Virus record (IMG/VR): IMGVR_UViG_2778261151_000002
Coordinates: 1-5,669 of that record
Source: a virus
Taxonomy: Duplodnaviria; Heunggongvirae; Uroviricota; Caudoviricetes
Strand: one strand, 5' to 3'
DNA length: 5,669 bases
How positions within the stretch are numbered: the stretch's first letter is position 1; the number at the start of each line of letters is the position of its first letter. A model generated the notes under the pieces. That model was given only the letters and a program-made list of their open reading frames with translations, did not search any database and was not told where the DNA came from. This document shows, one piece after another, positions 1 through 5,669 of this stretch. Made by a program: the position numbers and the translations under genes.

Positions 1-296
1 CGCGTTGTTTCCGGTATATCGACTTTGATGTACGGGTTAATTTGTCTGGCGACAGTGGCAAGGTCTTTATTCAGGAGAGCTTTGCATTCTGCTTCGGTAT
101 ACGTTTTACCAGGCATGATGTCTTTTCCGGTGTGTCCGTGACATACAGTCCATACACCAATGATATCTTTGTATGGTATGTAGCTGACACCTTCCAGACC
201 ATCGTTACCACCTGGGCCAGTGATTAACACAGATGCTATAGCAACAGCCCCGCCACCAATAGCAACTGCAACAGCCTTGCGTAATGATGGCGACAT
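1..296 (-). CDS. R: SAR endolysin (phage-21 R-type lysozyme), N-terminal ~98 aa only; 3' end runs off the window
   Basis: Manual minus-strand translation from ATG 296..294 gives [98 protein letters not shown]... Hydrophobic Gly/Ala-rich N-terminus fits a signal-anchor-release domain, followed by an E-x8-D-x5-T lysozyme catalytic triad. Start overlaps the holin stop (TAATG). Not in the ORF track because no stop lies within the window. Confidence 0.85.
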
Positions 297-511
297 TATT
301 CACCTCTCGCAGCCTTACGCTTATCTTCTCTTATTTTGAAATACAGATTCGTCAGATAAGTCAGAAGCCCCAGAAGCAGACTTCCCAGCACACCAATCGC
401 AGCCCACTGTGATGGACTGACCTGATCAAGCCACTGTAAAAACCAGTAGCCGGCACTGCCTGCGGAGGTGCCGTAGGCAATGCCCGTTGATATTTTGTCC
501 ATGGATTTCAT
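296..511 (-). CDS. S: Class II holin / pinholin, phage-21 S-type (71 aa), with dual-start motif MKSM
   Basis: ORF 296..589 trimmed to ATG at 511..509 ([71 protein letters not shown]). Two predicted TM segments and a charged C-terminus. Strong SD GGAGGTG 6 nt upstream. Second Met at codon 4 matches the antiholin/holin dual-start arrangement known for S21. Confidence 0.9.
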
Positions 512-627
512 AGCCTCACCTCCGCAAATAACGGATGGCGTAGTTCTTATATTGGGAAGGGAAAAAGAAGGCCGCAGCGTAACTGTCACTGATGAATTCA
601 GGATAGCCAGTGGCTACGGCTCAGTTA

Positions 628-703
628 TGGTGCTGGTTAACGGACTTGAACCGCTACCCATTCGCTTACAAGGCGACTGCTCTACCATTGGAGCTAAACC
701 AGC
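628..703 (-). tRNA. tRNA, manual fold gives anticodon UGU (Thr); 76 nt with encoded CCA
   Basis: Minus-strand read: acceptor GCTGGTT/AACCAGC (7 bp), D-arm GCTC-CAATGGTA-GAGC, anticodon arm GTCGC-CTTGTAA-GCGAA (U33, anticodon TGT, A37), 5-nt variable loop, T-arm AGCGG-TTCAAGT-CCGTT, discriminator A, CCA. Isotype assignment is by hand and needs tRNAscan-SE. Confidence 0.75.
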
Positions 704-708
704 ATATT

Positions 709-783
709 TGGCGGGACAGCGTGGACTCGAACCACGATAAGAAGGTTAACAGCCTTCCGTAATGACCTTTATACGACTGACCC
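709..783 (-). tRNA. tRNA, manual fold gives anticodon GUU (Asn); 75 nt with encoded CCA
   Basis: Minus-strand read: acceptor GGGTCAG/CTGTCCC (6 of 7 bp, U-U at 4:69), D-arm GTAT-AAAGGTCA-TTAC, anticodon arm GAAGG-CTGTTAA-CCTTC (perfect 5 bp, U33, anticodon GTT, A37), 4-nt variable loop, canonical T-arm CGTGG-TTCGAGT-CCACG, discriminator G, CCA. Separated from the other tRNA by 5 nt. Confidence 0.7.
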
Positions 784-784
784 C

Positions 785-809
785 AATAAAAAATCCCGAA
801 ACCGTTATG
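785..809 (-). terminator. Possible tR'-like late terminator remnant (T-tract with conserved 3' arm only)
   Basis: Minus strand reads GCATAACGGTTTCGGGATTTTTTATT, which matches my recollection of the 3' half of lambda tR'. I could not find the complementary 5' arm (CCCGAAAC) upstream, so a stable hairpin is not evident. Confidence 0.3.
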
Positions 810-933
810 CAGGCTCTATTCCTATGTGCTCTCGAGTTTATGATGCGCATGTCAGCGCGCTTAGAACTTAAAGATGAGGTGGGTAAAAAACCGAAAGAAT
901 GTGAACGGATATAAATCTGCCATTCTTGAGTCA

Positions 934-962
934 AATTTACCCAACTTTATTCAAAAAGTCAA
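934..962 (-). promoter_or_regulatory. Late promoter pR' with Q-utilisation (qut) region, lambda type
   Basis: Minus strand immediately after the Q stop: TTGACT (962..957), 17-bp spacer TTTTGAATAAAGTTGGG, TAAATT (939..934), then TGACTCAAG. This is near-identical to my recollection of lambda pR' -35/-10 and the intervening Q-binding element. Confidence 0.8.
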
Positions 963-1004
963 TATCATGCCGTTAATATGTTGCCATCCGTGGCAATCAT
1001 GCTG

Positions 1005-1628
1005 CTAACGTGTGACCGCATTCAAAATGTTGTCTGCGATTGACTCTTCTTTGTGGCATTGCACCACCAGGGCGTCATACAGCGGCTTAACAGTGCGTGA
1101 CCAGGTGGGTTGAGTAAGGTTTGGGATTAGCATCGTTACAGCGCGATATGCTGCGCTTGCTGGCATCCTTGAATAACCGACGCCTTTACATCTTCCGCAC
1201 TCTTTCTCAACAACTCTCCCCCACTGCTCTGTTTTTGCTATATCAACTGCCCGGCCTGTACCGTGGCAATCTCTGCATCTTGCGCCCGGCGTCGCGGCAC
1301 TACGACAATAATCCGCATAAGCGAATGTTGCGAGCACTTGCAGTACCTTTGCCTTAGTGTTTCCTTCGAGCTTTGCCACACCACGGTATTTCCCCGATAC
1401 CTTGTGTGCAAATTGCATCAGATAGTTGATAGCCTTTTGTTTGTCGTTCTGGCTGAGTTCATGCTTACCGCAAAATGCAGCCATTCCGAATCCGGCTTGT
1501 GATTGCGCCATCCCCATAGCAGCCATCACATCAGTACCGGAAAGAGAGTCAGAAGCCGTAGCCCGTGGTGAGTCGCTCATCATCGGGCTTTTTGGCGAAT
1601 GAAATTTAGCTACGCTTTCGAGTCTCAT
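1005..1628 (-). CDS. Q: Late-gene antitermination protein Q (lambda-type, 207 aa)
   Basis: Full-length ORF MRLESVAKFHSPKSPMMSDSPRATASDS...CRDCHGTGRAV...ECGRCKGVGY...NAVTR, with the zinc-binding Cys cluster and the length of lambda Q. Start overlaps the ninH stop (ATGA). Lies directly upstream of the pR'/qut sequence. Confidence 0.95.
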   Translation of the reverse strand: MRLESVAKFHSPKSPMMSDSPRATASDSLSGTDVMAAMGMAQSQAGFGMAAFCGKHELSQNDKQKAINYLMQFAHKVSGKYRGVAKLEGNTKAKVLQVLATFAYADYCRSAATPGARCRDCHGTGRAVDIAKTEQWGRVVEKECGRCKGVGYSRMPASAAYRAVTMLIPNLTQPTWSRTVKPLYDALVVQCHKEESIADNILNAVTR

Positions 1629-1813
1629 CGTCTTCCCCTCTTGCCCTGTTTGACCATCAGGACGCCGTTAACTATTACGTGACGCTCGCCTTTGCTGTCT
1701 CGGTTGTACTTGAGCACTGTTCCTCTTGCGCAGGAAAGCATCCTCGCCACTTCGGTCTGATTGCCTCGTGTCTGGATAAGAAGCTCTGGTATCGTTTGAA
1801 TTGTGGCGTTCAT
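1625..1813 (-). CDS. ninH: NinH-like small DNA-binding protein (62 aa)
   Basis: MNATIQTIPELLIQTRGNQTEVARMLSCARGTVLKYNRDSKGERHVIVNGVLMV... resembles lambda NinH (GNQTEVARRL...RGTV..KY...H.IVN.VLMV) as I recall it. Position immediately upstream of Q as in lambda. ATGA overlaps on both sides. Confidence 0.8.
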   Translation of the reverse strand: MNATIQTIPELLIQTRGNQTEVARMLSCARGTVLKYNRDSKGERHVIVNGVLMVKQGKRGRR

Positions 1814-2172
1814 ACGTTCTCCAGTTCGGTGATTTTTATTCCAAGCCTTCCGCCTGGTACTTTCACACCACGAATTACGCGAATGTCATCGAATTGCTCG
1901 TCGTCTTCCGCAAATCCGGCGTGGATAAGAGAGTCGAGTAGCCCCTTCAGGATGTTGTCGAGGTCGCGGCGGCGGGAGTCTGGAACGTCTGCGATGACTT
2001 TGATGCGGAGTCGTGCTTTGGTGAAAATATCTAACTTGAGTTGGCGGATGATTTGCTGAACGTCTTTTCGGTATTTCTGGCCTTTATCGCTGATGTAGTA
2101 TCGGCTTCCCCGTCTTCGCCAGTAGGTGTTCAGCGACGGCGGGTATGGAAGCGTGAATCTGTACTCATTCAT
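1810..2172 (-). CDS. rusA: Holliday-junction resolvase RusA (120 aa)
   Basis: MNEYRFTLPYPPSLNTYWRRRGSRYYISDKGQKYRKDV...DSRRRDLDNILKGLLDSL...GGRLGIKITELENV matches the RusA family pattern (LPxPPS.N, RRRDLDN catalytic acidic cluster) and length. Occupies the slot held by rap/ninG in lambda. Confidence 0.9.
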   Translation of the reverse strand: MNEYRFTLPYPPSLNTYWRRRGSRYYISDKGQKYRKDVQQIIRQLKLDIFTKARLRIKVIADVPDSRRRDLDNILKGLLDSLIHAGFAEDDEQFDDIRVIRGVKVPGGRLGIKITELENV

Positions 2173-2939
2173 GCAGCCTCCCCTGTTACTTTCAGCATTC
2201 CGTTATCGAGCAGCTTTCTGGTCAGCCACTGTTGACCACGCCCGGTGATTTTTGTGGTGAACGATATCTGTATTCCGTGATTTGTGTTGACCGCTGTTTC
2301 TTTCACTGTGAAATAGCCGCGATCCATATATTCCTGCATTGGCACATTGCGCCGGGAACCTGAAGCAATAAGGATTTTGTGATCACGCATCCACGCAAAC
2401 AGTTTGTTTGGGCCAATACCAACAACCTTTGCAAAGTTTCCAATCAAAATTCCGCTGGCCTCGCCAACGCGATCGGCAAACTCAACTTTAGGTGCGGCAA
2501 TCGCGAGTTGTTGCTCCAGCTTCACTTTCTGCTCATATTCGTTTGCCCACGCTCTGGCGGCTTCAGCAGGGTTTGTGAAGTCGGGCAAGGCTGACTTATC
2601 TTCTTTTTGGCCACGAAAATAATTGCGAACAAGCTCACGTTGCACTCTCCACGCCGTCTCGTCGCGCAGGGTTTTAACCAGCATCAAATAGCCTGATTCA
2701 GTGAAAACTCGCATGCCACGAGGAGGAATTTCAAAACCCCTTCTAAAGGTATTTTCATGAAAATCAATAAAATATGTATCTTCCCTGTCTATGAAATACT
2801 CAGAGTTTCGCGCATAGCCATTTTGAATAGTGGCTACTGGAACCCCGTGAATATCAGCAATCATTTGATACGTAACAACACGCTCGCCATTAAACTCAAT
2901 CGGCACGATTTCTGCGTTGGCAATAATTACGGCATTCAT
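2169..2939 (-). CDS. Phage antirepressor-like protein, ORF6N (KilA-N-like) N-terminal domain + KilA-C/ANT C-terminal domain (256 aa)
   Basis: N-terminus IEFNGERVVTYQMIADIHGV...PRGMRVFTESGYLMLVKTLRDETAWRVQRELVRNYF fits the ORF6N pattern (P..FTE.G..ML...L....A). C-terminus FADRVGEASGILIGNFAKVVGIGPNKLFAWMRDHKIL fits the KilA-C/ANT domain. Start ATG overlaps the upstream stop (ATGA at 2936..2939); stop overlaps the rusA start. Confidence 0.8.
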   Translation of the reverse strand: MNAVIIANAEIVPIEFNGERVVTYQMIADIHGVPVATIQNGYARNSEYFIDREDTYFIDFHENTFRRGFEIPPRGMRVFTESGYLMLVKTLRDETAWRVQRELVRNYFRGQKEDKSALPDFTNPAEAARAWANEYEQKVKLEQQLAIAAPKVEFADRVGEASGILIGNFAKVVGIGPNKLFAWMRDHKILIASGSRRNVPMQEYMDRGYFTVKETAVNTNHGIQISFTTKITGRGQQWLTRKLLDNGMLKVTGEAA

Positions 2940-3190
2940 GCAACACCTCCTTCAACGACAATAATGCTGTCGCGCTTACCTTGTTCGCCTTCGAAGACGT
3001 AATGCTCGTACTGAACATTGAACCCTAAGTTATTGATTCTTTCGGAAACCTCAATTTGAGGAAGCCGGATAACTCCACTTTTAACCAGCGTTTCGATGGT
3101 ACGTTTCACATTGTCATGACGCTTACCCACCAACTCAGCGATTTCAATGCTGGTCATTTTGATGGCGTTGCTATTTATCAGCTCGTTCAT
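2936..3190 (-). CDS. Small Rha-family-like phage regulatory protein (84 aa), stand-alone N-terminal-domain-only form
   Basis: MNELINSNAIKMTSIEIAELVGKRHDNVKRTIETLVKSG... has the KRHDNV-R-I motif typical of phage Rha N-terminal domains. Start chosen at ATG 3190..3188 (SD GAGAGGA about 7 nt upstream) rather than the ATG at 3196, whose spacer is too short. Stop overlaps the Ant start. Confidence 0.55.
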   Translation of the reverse strand: MNELINSNAIKMTSIEIAELVGKRHDNVKRTIETLVKSGVIRLPQIEVSERINNLGFNVQYEHYVFEGEQGKRDSIIVVEGGVA

Positions 3191-3220
3191 TGTCATGTCC
3201 TCTCATATTGAAAATTCAGC

Positions 3221-3246
3221 AATAAAAAACCCAGCCGAAGCTGGGT
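3221..3246 (-). terminator. Rho-independent terminator (minus strand) immediately downstream of the Roi-like gene
   Basis: Minus strand reads CCCAGC-TTCG-GCTGGG followed by TTTTTTATT: a 6-bp GC-rich stem, UUCG tetraloop and U6 tract. The plus strand has no T-tract after the hairpin, so it is unidirectional. Confidence 0.8.
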
Positions 3247-3264
3247 CGTTGCGTTGGCAATCTG

Positions 3265-3969
3265 TCAGTAGTGATGTAGTGAAGGAGGTAATTCTTTGTT
3301 CTTAAGTCTTACCCATGCAGAAAGATTCGTTGGTCCGTCTGGCTCATTAATATCAACATCTCGTGTGTGATTGATTAAAACGTCTCTCGCCATTCCGATA
3401 ACATACGAGAACTCATGACCGTAGTCGTGGCATCTGCCGGAATAGTTAGACTGAATTTGTCTTAGCGCCGGATACAGTTCGCGGAATAATGCCTGTGAGC
3501 GGTTGGCATAATCCCACAACCATACCAGACTGTTTGCATCTTTTGCAGAAAGCTCGCTGGTTTTCTTCTCGTGATGACCTGCGCTTTTCGAAGTCTGGCT
3601 GAAATAGCAGTCTTCCAGTTTTTCGAACACGTCCCATGCCTGATCGGTTTCGAGCATCTTCGCGTGACGGGCTGCGCCTCGTTCTGTCCAGAGGATGAGC
3701 GAGCGGGTTTTCGGGGAAATTTGTAACCCTCTTAAAGATGGTTGCAAATTTTGTGAGTAGTTTAAAGCTACCCGCAATTCTTTAAGGTCATTACCAACAA
3801 CTTTGAAAAAGTGTTTCCCTTCAACGAAGCGTACTTTGTTCTCATGATGATTCTGGCGAATACGCACCGGCTCAGTGCCGTAAAGCTGCGCCAAAAGTTC
3901 AGTGGTAATAACAGGTATCTGGTTATGGGTGATCGGGGAGAGAGTTTCAACAGCAATTTGAGTTGTCAT
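3265..3969 (-). CDS. Roi-like DNA-binding protein: ORF6N (KilA-N-like) N-terminal domain + C-terminal domain of unknown function (234 aa)
   Basis: N-terminus [37 protein letters not shown]...[35 protein letters not shown] fits the ORF6N pattern and recalls HK022/HK97 Roi. C-terminal ~110 aa has no motif I recognise. Strong SD GGAGGTG 6 nt before ATG 3969. Flanked by intrinsic terminators on both sides. Confidence 0.7.
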
Positions 3970-4130
3970 AGTGACACCTCCGGTAGATGTTTCAGAACAT
4001 CACCACCTTCAGGTGCTAATCATCGGGTGGCGAGACGTACAGGGTTAGCACTACCGGATCTACCAACCGGCCAGCCTTTCGGCTGCCCCATACGCCCCAC
4101 CATAATTCAGATGTGCGTGCGCATACGACA

Positions 4131-4154
4131 ATAAAAAACACGCTTGCGGCGTGT
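4131..4154 (-). terminator. Rho-independent terminator (minus strand) upstream of the Roi-like gene, downstream of the ninE/antisense-TA region
   Basis: Minus strand reads ACACGC-CGCAA-GCGTGT followed by TTTTTTAT (6-bp stem, 5-nt loop, T-tract). Fits the position of a nin-region tR-type terminator. Confidence 0.75.
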
Positions 4155-4290
4155 GTCTGTCGCGGTAGTTATCCGGGGTGCTAATCCCGACGCCAGATTT
4201 TGCTGGCGTATGAGGAATATAGCCCCGGATATGTGTTGTCGTCAACTACAGGCCTTGAATGCATATAACGATTTTGTTATGTTGATACCT

Positions 4291-4620
4291 ATGAACTACA
4301 CTATCGAATACTACAGTGAAGATGTAAGGCTGGAAGTCGATCGGCTTCCATTGAGTATGCGTGCCCGATACCAACATCTCGTTGAACGTATGAAGATATA
4401 TGGCAGCAATCTCGGAGAACCTCACACCAGCGCCTTTGGTGACGGGCTTTTCGAACTCAGAATTAAAGGCAACGATGGGATCGCGCGTGTTTTTTACTGC
4501 ACTCTGACAGGGAAACGCATCATCATGCTGCATAGTTTTGTAAAGAAAACGCAGAAAACACCGCCAGCCGAACGCAAGAAAGCTGAAACCAGAATGAAGG
4601 AGGTTAAGCATGACTGGTAA
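4291..4620 (+). CDS. RelE/ParE-superfamily toxin-like protein (Gp49/HigB-like, ~109 aa)
   Basis: MNYTIEYYSEDVRLEVDRLP...GDGLFELRIKGNDGIARVFYCTLTGKRIIMLHSFVKKTQKTPPAERKKAETRMKE matches the Gp49-like/HigB-like pattern (F.LR......R..Y......I..L..F.KK.QKTP..E...A). ORF-track ORF 4144..4620 trimmed to an internal ATG. Alternative ATG at 4279 (MLIPMNYT...); neither has a clear SD. Stop TAA overlaps the antitoxin gene by 11 nt. Confidence 0.75.
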   Translation: MNYTIEYYSEDVRLEVDRLPLSMRARYQHLVERMKIYGSNLGEPHTSAFGDGLFELRIKGNDGIARVFYCTLTGKRIIMLHSFVKKTQKTPPAERKKAETRMKEVKHDW

Positions 4621-4918
4621 ACGCACTCTCCCCACCATGACACACGACGAAATGGCAGCCAAATGGATGGAAGACCCGGCTTTTAAAGCAGAATACGACG
4701 CTATCGCTGACGAATTCGCACTGCTTGATGAAATGCTGGCAGCACGCAAAGAAGCTGGCTTAACTCAGGCTGAAGTTGCCGAGCGAATGGGAACAAAAGC
4801 GACCGCGATCACCAGAATGGAAAGTAATCTCGCATCAGGTATCAGCGGCCCATCATTTGCCACACTAAAAAAATTCGCCCGCGCTACTGGAAAAAAACTC
4901 CAGATCCGCTTCGTTTAA
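4610..4918 (+). CDS. HTH-XRE antitoxin-like protein (HigA-like, 102 aa)
   Basis: MTGKRTLPTMTHDEMAAKWMEDPAFKAEYDAIADEFALLDEMLAARKEAGLTQAEVAERMGTKATAITRMESN...FATLKKFARATGKKLQIRFV has a helix-turn-helix (LTQAEVAERMGT...ITRMES) and the conserved C-terminal L.IR.V tail seen in antitoxins partnered with Gp49/HigB-like toxins. Strong SD AAGGAGGT 6 nt before the ATG. Overlaps the toxin gene. Confidence 0.8.
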   Translation: MTGKRTLPTMTHDEMAAKWMEDPAFKAEYDAIADEFALLDEMLAARKEAGLTQAEVAERMGTKATAITRMESNLASGISGPSFATLKKFARATGKKLQIRFV

Positions 4919-4959
4919 CCACACCGCGCCGTCATTCTGGCGGCGCACCGGATAAATAG

Positions 4960-5136
4960 TCATTTCCTCGCACGATGTCTTAGCCACCGGATATCCCACA
5001 GGTGAGCCGTGTAGTTGAAGGTTTTTACGTCAGATTCTTTTGGGATTGGCTTGCGTTTATTTCTGGAGCGTTTCGTTGGAAGGTATTTGCAGTTTTCGCA
5101 GATGATGTCGGTGAAACTTCGTCGCTGTCGTCTCAT
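4960..5136 (-). CDS. ninE: NinE-like small protein (58 aa)
   Basis: [58 protein letters not shown] resembles lambdoid NinE as I recall it. Start ATG overlaps the ninB stop (ATGA at 5133..5136). The ORF-track version (from 5196) uses an upstream GTG that overlaps ninB; an alternative in-frame ATG at 5154 cannot be excluded. Confidence 0.7.
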
Positions 5137-5573
5137 GCCGCCCTGTCTCCCCATCGCGCTTTCCACTCCAGAGCCAGTCGCGCTTCGTCTGACCACTTAA
5201 CGCCACGCTCTGTACCGAATGCCTGTATAAGCTCTAATAGCTCCGCAAATTCGCTTACACGCATCCTGCTGGTTGACTGGCCTATTACCACAAAGCCATT
5301 CCCGGCAAGGTTAGGAACAACGTCCTGCTGCTTTAATGCTGCGGTAAACACACACTTCCAGCTTTCTGCATCCAGCCAGCGACCATGCCATTCAACCTGA
5401 CGAGAGACGTCACCAAGGCAAGCCCAAAGCTTTCGATTCTGGTCTAAGCTGCGGTTGCGTTCCTGAATGGTTACTACGATTGGTTTGGTTGGGTCTGGAA
5501 GAATTTGCTGTACTGCGTGAATAGCGTTTTGCTGATGTGCTGGAGATCGAATTTCAAAGGTTAGTTTTTTCAT
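5133..5573 (-). CDS. ninB: Recombination protein NinB (Orf family, 146 aa)
   Basis: [76 protein letters not shown]...[16 protein letters not shown] is essentially lambda NinB as I recall it. True start at ATG 5573 with SD GGGAGAGGGAAG upstream; the ORF-track start at 5591 is an upstream TTG. Confidence 0.95.
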
Positions 5574-5669
5574 GACTTCCCTCTCCCCCAAAGTAAGCGG
5601 CTCGCCAGAACCGTATTGATATTTACTGAGAAGTCAGATCAACTTTCCAGGGCAACAGATCGCGTACCC

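Follow-up and report, generated by a model that had tools for sequence, protein, structure and literature searches.

Judging from sequence comparisons, the Roi-like gene discussed here is a roi gene of the phage HK022 type whose N-terminal Rha head has been displaced by an ORF6N head, the old head surviving as a small open reading frame (ORF). The gene lies in a 5,669-nucleotide stretch comprising positions 1 to 5,669 of the IMG/VR virus record IMGVR_UViG_2778261151_000002 (hereafter the window), where it encodes a protein of 256 amino acids (aa) and is preceded by a gene for an Ant-like protein of 234 aa. We consider it probable that the two genes form a mosaic antirepressor-type pair in which the Rha-N head of Roi was swapped for ORF6N, with functions such as those suggested by their relatives. 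The original prediction, made from the sequence of the window, had regarded the two proteins as paralogues which arose by domain shuffling on a common DNA-binding scaffold. Its observation was confirmed in part and its interpretation supported in part: the ORF6N heads, the unrelated tails and the shuffling stood, whereas the scaffold model and several details did not.

The breakpoints of the exchange were defined by comparing the window with Escherichia coli S51 and phage HK022 (Table 1). Between positions 2953 and 4100 the window is 89% identical to an S51 segment comprising the 5' part of roi, the intergenic hairpin and the Ant-like gene, and the DNA of the Rha stump is collinear with S51 roi up to window position ~2953. 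From there on, 417 nucleotides (nt; 2536-2952) stand in place of 121 nt of roi; the chimera lacks Roi residues ~81-110, and its linker differs in type in the first half. This cassette encodes the ORF6N head and the beginning of a type 2 linker, preceded by an AAGGAGG motif and, 7 nt further on, an ATG. As the left junction reads ...GACAGCATTATTGTCGTTG on the one side and AAGGAGGTGTTGCATGAATGCC on the other, the incoming piece supplies its own Shine-Dalgarno sequence and start codon and the old frame stops in an ATGA overlap, the TGA of the stump overlapping the ATG of the 256-aa gene. The stump is made up of ~80 codons from the start of a Roi-type gene and five contributed by the cassette, and is 66% identical to HK022 Roi aa 1-80. 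The 256-aa protein matches HK022 Roi 111-241 over its residues 126-256 with 93% identity, all residues from 146 onwards being the same. Together with the breakpoints, these identities led us to regard the 256-aa gene as a Roi-type gene with a displaced Rha head. It has the same tail as HK022 Roi and the same position between the nin genes and rusA/Q; in HK022 Roi, however, the Rha head is joined to the KilAC tail in a single polypeptide, whereas in the window it is cut off as a separate 86-codon ORF and ORF6N stands in its place.

In such an exchange, the fragment that recombined into roi would have comprised a ribosome-binding site and start codon together with the ORF6N domain and the first part of the linker, its right-hand crossover lying where KilAC begins, in the conserved linker, and its left-hand junction within the Rha head. 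As the latter lies inside the head, the old head would survive as an ORF of 84-86 codons whose stop overlaps the new start. We regard these anatomical and evolutionary steps of the head exchange as demonstrated. A donor of the cassette was not found, the nearest proteins being P0054 (head 68% identical) and P0241 (64%). Fusion of the stump with the 256-aa ORF by programmed frameshifting was also considered, and was rejected by inspection only, as no slippery sequence is present at the ATGA overlap.

Segment-wise comparison of seven proteins, arranged as a head-by-tail matrix, revealed that heads are swapped on a constant KilAC tail. The domain shuffling seen by the original prediction is therefore real but of the opposite form, as it is not a common DNA-binding scaffold that acquires new effectors. 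The roi-type KilAC tail (98-100% identical) was found under an ORF6N head in the window, under a Rha type 1 head in HK022 Roi and P0010, under a Rha type 2 head in P0003 and under a KilA-N head in P0005. A second type of KilAC tail is combined with an ORF6N head in P0054 and with a Rha type 2 head in a 223-aa protein of the metagenome contig L030. Proteins closely related to the roi-type tail, at about 90% identity in the C-terminal half, are almost all 240-aa Rha+ANT proteins. The linker LPDF.NPAEAARAWA.EYEQK is common to all seven proteins except the two Roi-type proteins with a Rha type 1 head, and as the part of the linker past EYEQK goes with the tail, the crossover was placed within the linker. 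Junctions in two further loci represent independent analogous cases. One of them, L028, has a truncated Rha-plus-linker ORF followed by ORF6N-KilAC; the other is in L030. In a further locus, L029, the junction is that of the window, but the stump belongs to another Rha allele. The Ant-like gene is usually found beside Rha-KilAC and not ORF6N-KilAC, which argues that the adjacency of two ORF6N genes in the window is a by-product of the exchange rather than a tandem duplication.

L030 (positions 4001-5094, in a pL operon beside kil and cIII) displays a mirror image of the window arrangement, namely a truncated ORF6N ORF of 141 aa without its last helix, an ATGA overlap and the complete 223-aa Rha-KilAC protein. 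In the E. coli protein P0013 (203 aa), residues 1-52 of an Ant-like ORF6N head are joined to a Roi tail by a deletion, indicating that neighbouring Ant-like and Roi-like genes can be fused in this manner.

Both proteins start with an ORF6N domain, as had been predicted. With a gathering score of 27.8 bits for the Pfam family (PF10543), the 256-aa protein scored 41.4 bits over residues 14-89 (43.6 bits for the isolated head) and the 234-aa protein 70.4 bits over residues 12-105 (72.4 bits for the isolated head). The pairwise alignment that had been proposed as a check bore this out. The N-terminal ~110-125 aa of the two proteins were aligned by BLASTP with E=6.6e-9 and 25% identity over 119 columns; the Smith-Waterman score had a z of 13 relative to 500 shuffles, none of which reached the real score; and hhalign of the head-family profiles gave a probability of 98.7% (E=2.3e-16, 108 columns), the profiles being built from six sequences for the 256-aa family and from 130 for the 234-aa family (its own head and 129 of the 150 listed representatives of 50%-identity clusters). 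The signature P..FTE.G..ML, thought to be shared, is literally present in the 256-aa protein (PPRGMRVFTESGYLML), but in the 234-aa protein only a shared core, (F/W)TE.G, was found.

Such significantly aligning heads in neighbouring genes on one strand would also be expected if the pair had arisen as tandem paralogues, by local duplication of an ORF6N gene, one copy of which gained another C-terminal effector so that related DNA sites would be bound with different outputs, and a 2012 paper attributes a 'similar predicted conformation' to Ant and the downstream Roi (PMC3430580). The heads in the window are, however, only 25% identical, and the 256-aa head has nearer relatives among heads of Clostridioides, Elizabethkingia and other E. 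coli phages (39-46%). Furthermore, it came as a cassette inside roi, whose own Rha head is still present as the stump; the chimeric unit was found without the upstream Ant-like gene in one E. coli locus (L006); and only three of 18 residues match in the predicted second helix of the helix-turn-helix (HTH). A tandem origin is thus largely refuted by the breakpoints, and we regard it as extremely unlikely. By sequence, the two heads are distant homologues and not recent paralogues: calling the proteins paralogous is correct in so far as both are distant members of the ORF6N family but overstated, as they were brought together by mosaic recombination. Similarly, the genes, which had been described as lying side by side, are neighbours on the same strand but are separated by 325 bp containing the hairpin at 3228-3247 and the 86-codon Rha-N ORF.

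Structure models were computed with AlphaFold2 (AF2), and the heads were compared by the order of their secondary-structure elements and their shared PDB matches. In agreement with the original prediction, both head models display one order (strand, strand, helix, helix, strand, strand, helix, helix), the 234-aa head having an extra two-helix insert (aa 59-82) between the central strands at aa 54-58 and 90-94. The model of the 234-aa protein was good, with a mean predicted local distance difference test (pLDDT) score of 80 and most of the head above 90. That of the 256-aa protein was moderate (mean pLDDT 67, head block means 55-87), because the search for close relatives of this head yielded just three proteins and hence a shallow alignment. 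Foldseek searches against the PDB gave no significant match for either model, and a sequence search for solved structures found none for either protein; matches of both models below significance included the Ski/SnoN/Dachshund homology domain (3eq5, 1sbx, 1l8r) and winged-helix regulators. The heads had also been termed 'KilA-N-type'. This was not upheld, as the isolated heads had no match to KilA-N (PF04383) or Bro-N even at E<=10 and APSES/KilA-N structures were absent among the listed fold matches of either model. ORF6N is therefore best called a predicted MerR/Dachshund-like winged helix, and a head with this modelled fold would probably bind DNA.

A homology between Rha-N and ORF6N, suggested by PHROG 63, which aligns both at the same profile positions, was rejected, since BLASTP found nothing and the hhalign probability was at most 2%; both may nevertheless be winged helices. 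Operator-like repeats common to both genes were searched for in the window, with no convincing result. The suggestion that the two proteins recognize related DNA targets is mildly disfavoured by the predicted second HTH helix, in which the two heads of the window share only three of 18 residues, as against 11 of 18 shared between the 256-aa protein and another natural allele of the 234-aa family; the two heads most likely differ in specificity.

As to the tails, the original prediction was right in that the C-terminal halves are unrelated and one of them is of the KilA-C/ANT type. The 256-aa protein matched ANT/KilAC (PF03374) at residues 142-244 with 114.8 bits (cut-off 25.3 bits), and the 234-aa protein matched P22_AR_C (PF10548) at residues 134-206 with 98.9 bits (cut-off 22.4 bits) and had no ANT/KilAC match in Pfam. 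Between the two tails there was no Pfam cross-match at E<=10 and an hhalign probability of 0.1%. A pairwise BLASTP match of 40% over 37 aa (E=1.8e-4, z=5.2) had raised the possibility of a remote KilAC-P22AR_C homology; it was overruled by the hhalign and Pfam results and was treated as a chance local motif, GP.NL.AW.R. In the AF2 models, the P22AR_C domain consists of helices at 142-171 and 176-203 (block-mean pLDDT 73-83), and KilAC of a helix-turn-helix followed by a beta-hairpin and a helix.

The second C-terminal domain, considered unknown by the original prediction, is thus a known Pfam domain: residues 131-234 of the 234-aa protein are 88% identical to P22 Ant 197-300, and the tail is 91% identical to the Ant proteins of phage 2851 and of epsilon34. 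The first 130 aa could not be aligned with P22 Ant, which itself carries a P22_AR_N head (149.7 bits) where the 234-aa protein has ORF6N. In addition, P22 Ant is encoded at the immI site under the control of Arc, Mnt and sar, whereas the Ant-like gene is in the nin region, and no arc or mnt homologue that would speak for immI control of the P22 type was found within the window. On sequence grounds we therefore place the 234-aa protein in the Ant class of phi24B and phage 2851, which combines an ORF6N head with the conserved P22 Ant C-terminal domain; the phi24B ant gene also lies just upstream of a roi-type gene and Q.

Among 120 homologues of the Ant-like protein that are at least 84% identical to it (P0121-P0240), variation was concentrated in residues 31-50 (window 3820-3879), the predicted second HTH helix. 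This segment occurs as three discrete alleles, that of the window in 54 sequences, AEVKNIQNNYARNAERFIE in 26 and TEINNIKVNYTRNSERFVE in 25, and the segments flanking it are almost invariant. A 10-aa unit, SQNLRVTLSN, varies in copy number within the ORF6N helical insert (window ~3720-3790, aa 60-83; P0124, P0126, P0202), giving rise to homologues of 226, 234, 244 and 250 aa; tandem DNA repeats were looked for in the Ant-like gene of the window and none were found. In a P1-like plasmid, p702_18_3 (L034, positions 1835-3048), a 332-aa ORF6N protein is encoded directly downstream of an icd-like gene, a position which we take to be that of ant in P1 immI. Its gene is 69.5% identical to the head cassette over 184 nt, but with its length and its 240-aa tail without Pfam match it differs from both window proteins.

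The discrete alleles resemble a diversification of specificity, and this raises the question whether the heads recognize proteins and not DNA, so that the two gene products would be antirepressors aimed at different resident-prophage repressors in a competition between prophages. The 234-aa head is indeed joined to many different C-termini: it is shared by 1967 representatives of 50%-identity clusters, and among the best 150 of these there were 140 with ORF6N, 23 with P22_AR_C, eight with ORF6C and two with ANT, most tails having no Pfam match. An ORF6N protein at what is presumably the ant position beside icd would fit equally. On the other hand, the predicted ORF6N fold resembles DNA-binding winged helices (pSK1 Par, RacA, the MerR family, Dachshund), the variation falls on the helix by which DNA is normally read, and HK022 Roi, the donor type of the tail, was reported by Clerget and Boccard in 1996 to be a DNA-binding protein, in work which is also said to have described a site within its own gene and a growth phenotype linked to IHF. 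Recognition of proteins by the heads, although P22 Ant is cited as acting by binding and inactivating the repressor (PMC3064807), thus seems unlikely to us.

The window represents the nin (delayed-early) region of a lambdoid E. coli/Shigella prophage, with the relevant genes on the minus strand in the order ninB, ninE, a toxin-antitoxin pair (itself on the plus strand), the Ant-like gene, the Rha stump, the Roi-like gene, rusA, ninH and Q; past the lambda-type Q lie tRNA-Asn and tRNA-Thr and a P21-type holin. Its segment 2100-4050 matches the chromosome of E. coli FDAARGOS_943 at 99.7% identity. There, PGAP labelled the Ant-like ORF as 'P22AR C-terminal domain-containing protein', the stump as a 'Rha family transcriptional regulator' pseudogene with 'missing C-terminus', and the 256-aa ORF as 'phage antirepressor Ant'. 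The sequence of the hairpin between the two genes is conserved in E. coli S51.

Table 1. Coordinates and characteristics of the features in the window.
Feature	Position	Strand	Remarks
ninB	5133-5591	-	
Toxin-antitoxin pair, Gp49/RelE-like + HTH_3	4144-4918	+	between ninE and the Ant-like gene
Ant-like gene, 234 aa	3265..3969	-	ORF6N head aa 12-105, P22AR_C tail aa 134-206
ORF6N domain of the 234-aa protein	3655..3936	-	two-helix insert aa 59-82
P22AR_C domain	3352..3570	-	Pfam 98.9 bits; predicted long helical hairpin
Terminator-like hairpin GACCCAGC-TTCG-GCTGGGTT, then TTTTTT	3228..3247	-	18 nt past the stop codon of the Ant-like gene
Rha-N stump, 84-86 codons	2936..3196	-	Pfam Phage_pRha 30.3 bits
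Head cassette, 417 nt	2536..2952	-	blastn breakpoints and three-way alignment
Chimeric Roi-like gene, 256 aa	2169..2939	-	ORF6N aa 14-89, linker LPDFTNPAEAARAWANEYEQK, KilAC/ANT aa 142-244
roi-derived 3' part encoding the KilAC tail	2173..2535	-	97% nt identity to roi of HK022 and E. coli S51

A second terminator-like hairpin was observed upstream of the Ant-like gene (4138-4154, minus strand), which is thereby bracketed like a separate insert in the nin transcript. In sibling prophages (L018, L025-L027) a HigB-like (PF05015) and HTH_3 pair occupies the position of the toxin-antitoxin pair of the window, indicating that toxin-antitoxin cassettes are exchanged at one site. The genes for tRNA-Thr(TGT) and tRNA-Asn(GTT) are located at 628-783 (minus strand) between Q and the holin, as is the case in many prophages of the Shiga toxin (Stx) type and lambdoid prophages.

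Parts of the region matched 1730 of 5426 complete E. coli genomes, and in the best-matching E. coli records a P22AR_C or Ant gene is paired with a KilAC gene; an Ant-like gene followed by a KilAC gene is a common arrangement, and the succession of Ant and Roi has been remarked upon in Stx phages (PMC3430580). The ORF6N cassette itself was present in only four of the 5426 genomes, always with a Rha stump and once, in L006, without the Ant-like gene. In a larger assembly collection, the exact 256-aa protein was found on 164 contigs, from E. coli and several Shigella species, with the same gene neighbourhood in all 10 places shown, and the exact 234-aa sequence on 97 contigs. Of the 24 members of the 90% cluster of the 256-aa protein, 15 are listed, and 12 of these are full length.

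Because they lie in the pR transcript upstream of Q, both genes would be expected to be expressed as delayed-early genes once N antitermination carries RNA polymerase over the hairpins. All that can be said on the function of the two proteins is what we infer by analogy with their relatives. By means of its P22AR_C domain, which would probably bind a CI-type repressor, the Ant-like protein would accelerate derepression and the expression of late genes. In phi24B, whose Ant has the same C-terminus as P22 Ant, deletion of ant lowered late expression from pR' after induction to ~27-56% of that of the wild type and did not affect superinfection (PMC3064807). The KilAC protein would act on DNA or on a host target, possibly in cell division or the SOS response. 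In Listeria AriS it is the KilAC domain that inhibits the SOS response, and the N-terminal domain is variably of the AntA/B, Bro-N or pRha family (PMC9043618); the KilA domain of phi11 Gp07 is described as inhibiting growth. From such tested relatives of the Ant-like and KilAC proteins, we infer that the tails are conserved activity modules and the heads specificity modules, which would supply the choice of target.

Several results weigh against the interpretation given above. With respect to the route of the exchange, it could have been either the insertion of a cassette or an internal deletion, the latter in the upstream copy of a former tandem of Rha-KilAC and ORF6N-KilAC genes. When the stump/ORF6N junction (2933-2951, coding strand AGGAGGTGTTGCATGAATG) was compared with the KilAC/rusA junction (2166-2184, AGGGGAGGCTGCATGAATG), 15 of 19 nt were alike. 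This resemblance might hint at the internal-deletion route, the last codons of the stump then being the end of a former upstream KilAC gene; it may equally be due to chance or to convergence of overlapping start signals. With respect to function, the readout of the phi24B ant deletion was late expression and not an action of Ant on CI (PMC3064807). With respect to the condition of the genes, two of the four complete-genome copies are damaged, by a frameshift in L004 (3070-3764) and by an IS1 truncation in L007 (1770-2467); the host prophages carry insertion sequence (IS) elements, and the 256-aa gene may be dispensable in a defective prophage.

As a side observation on the prophages concerned, IS600 splits ninB in E. 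coli FDAARGOS_943 (L001, 7558-9265), and the sibling prophages are decaying. If the 256-aa gene and the Rha stump were merely non-functional debris of such a decaying prophage, the adjacency of two ORF6N genes would be biologically meaningless. The damaged sibling copies, the annotation of the stump as a pseudogene by PGAP, the IS600 or IS66 elements in or beside ninB and the rarity of the cassette among complete E. coli genomes would all agree with this. However, the exact 256-aa ORF is intact on the 164 contigs and most listed members of its 90% cluster are full length, the cassette brings a canonical AAGGAGG-N7-ATG start, and two relatives, the diverged P0002 (89% identical) and P0054 (50% identical), keep intact ORF6N-KilAC frames. 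We therefore consider it rather improbable that the gene is debris, and retain the reading of a Roi-type gene with an exchanged head.

With regard to known systems, the P22AR_C domain of the 234-aa protein is common to P22 Ant and the Ant proteins of phi24B and 2851. A parallel to the alternation of heads is found in the AriS-like KilAC regulators of Listeria and other Firmicutes phages, which likewise combine a conserved C-terminal ANT/KilAC domain with alternating heads, as observed here with ORF6N, Rha and KilA-N. They belong, however, to another host phylum, their sequences are remote, ORF6N is not among their listed heads and the SOS activity is known from the Listeria proteins (PMC9043618). 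The families concerned have a longer history, and the present locus fits into it without being novel in kind: earlier work has described the domain families, the way they are shuffled and the pairing of Ant with Roi, and the exact proteins are annotated in public databases. Iyer, Koonin and Aravind are said to have surveyed in 2002 phage and viral regulators with KilA-N, Bro-N, ORF6N, KilA-C, P22AR-N/C and Rha domains whose heads and tails are freely recombined, and the Pfam families ORF6N, P22_AR_C and ANT reportedly derive from that work. To the shuffling described there, the window adds an exchange that can be traced in the nucleotide sequence, from its breakpoints and the common linker to the remnant of the old head.

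A more speculative possibility is that the Rha-N stump is retained as a stand-alone winged-helix decoy competing with full-length Roi/Rha-type regulators of lambdoid phages that reside in the same cell or superinfect it, such decoys being generated as heads are displaced again and again, and the HTH alleles of the Ant-like protein belonging to the same arms race between prophages; we consider this very unlikely. The new information is modest and consists of the displacement of a head on a KilAC tail, documented at the nucleotide level with a surviving stump, and of an allelic hot spot in the Ant-like head. It is of small practical value in correcting the logic of annotation at a very common prophage locus, where one protein carries the C-terminal domain of P22 Ant and the other is a derivative of Roi. 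The locus offers a clean example of how a phage regulator can swap its head by making use of a conserved linker and leaving the displaced head behind as a small ORF. Furthermore, the second HTH helix of the Ant-like head would be a sensible start for work on specificity in Stx-type phages, in which Ant affects the timing of late-gene, and hence of toxin, expression.

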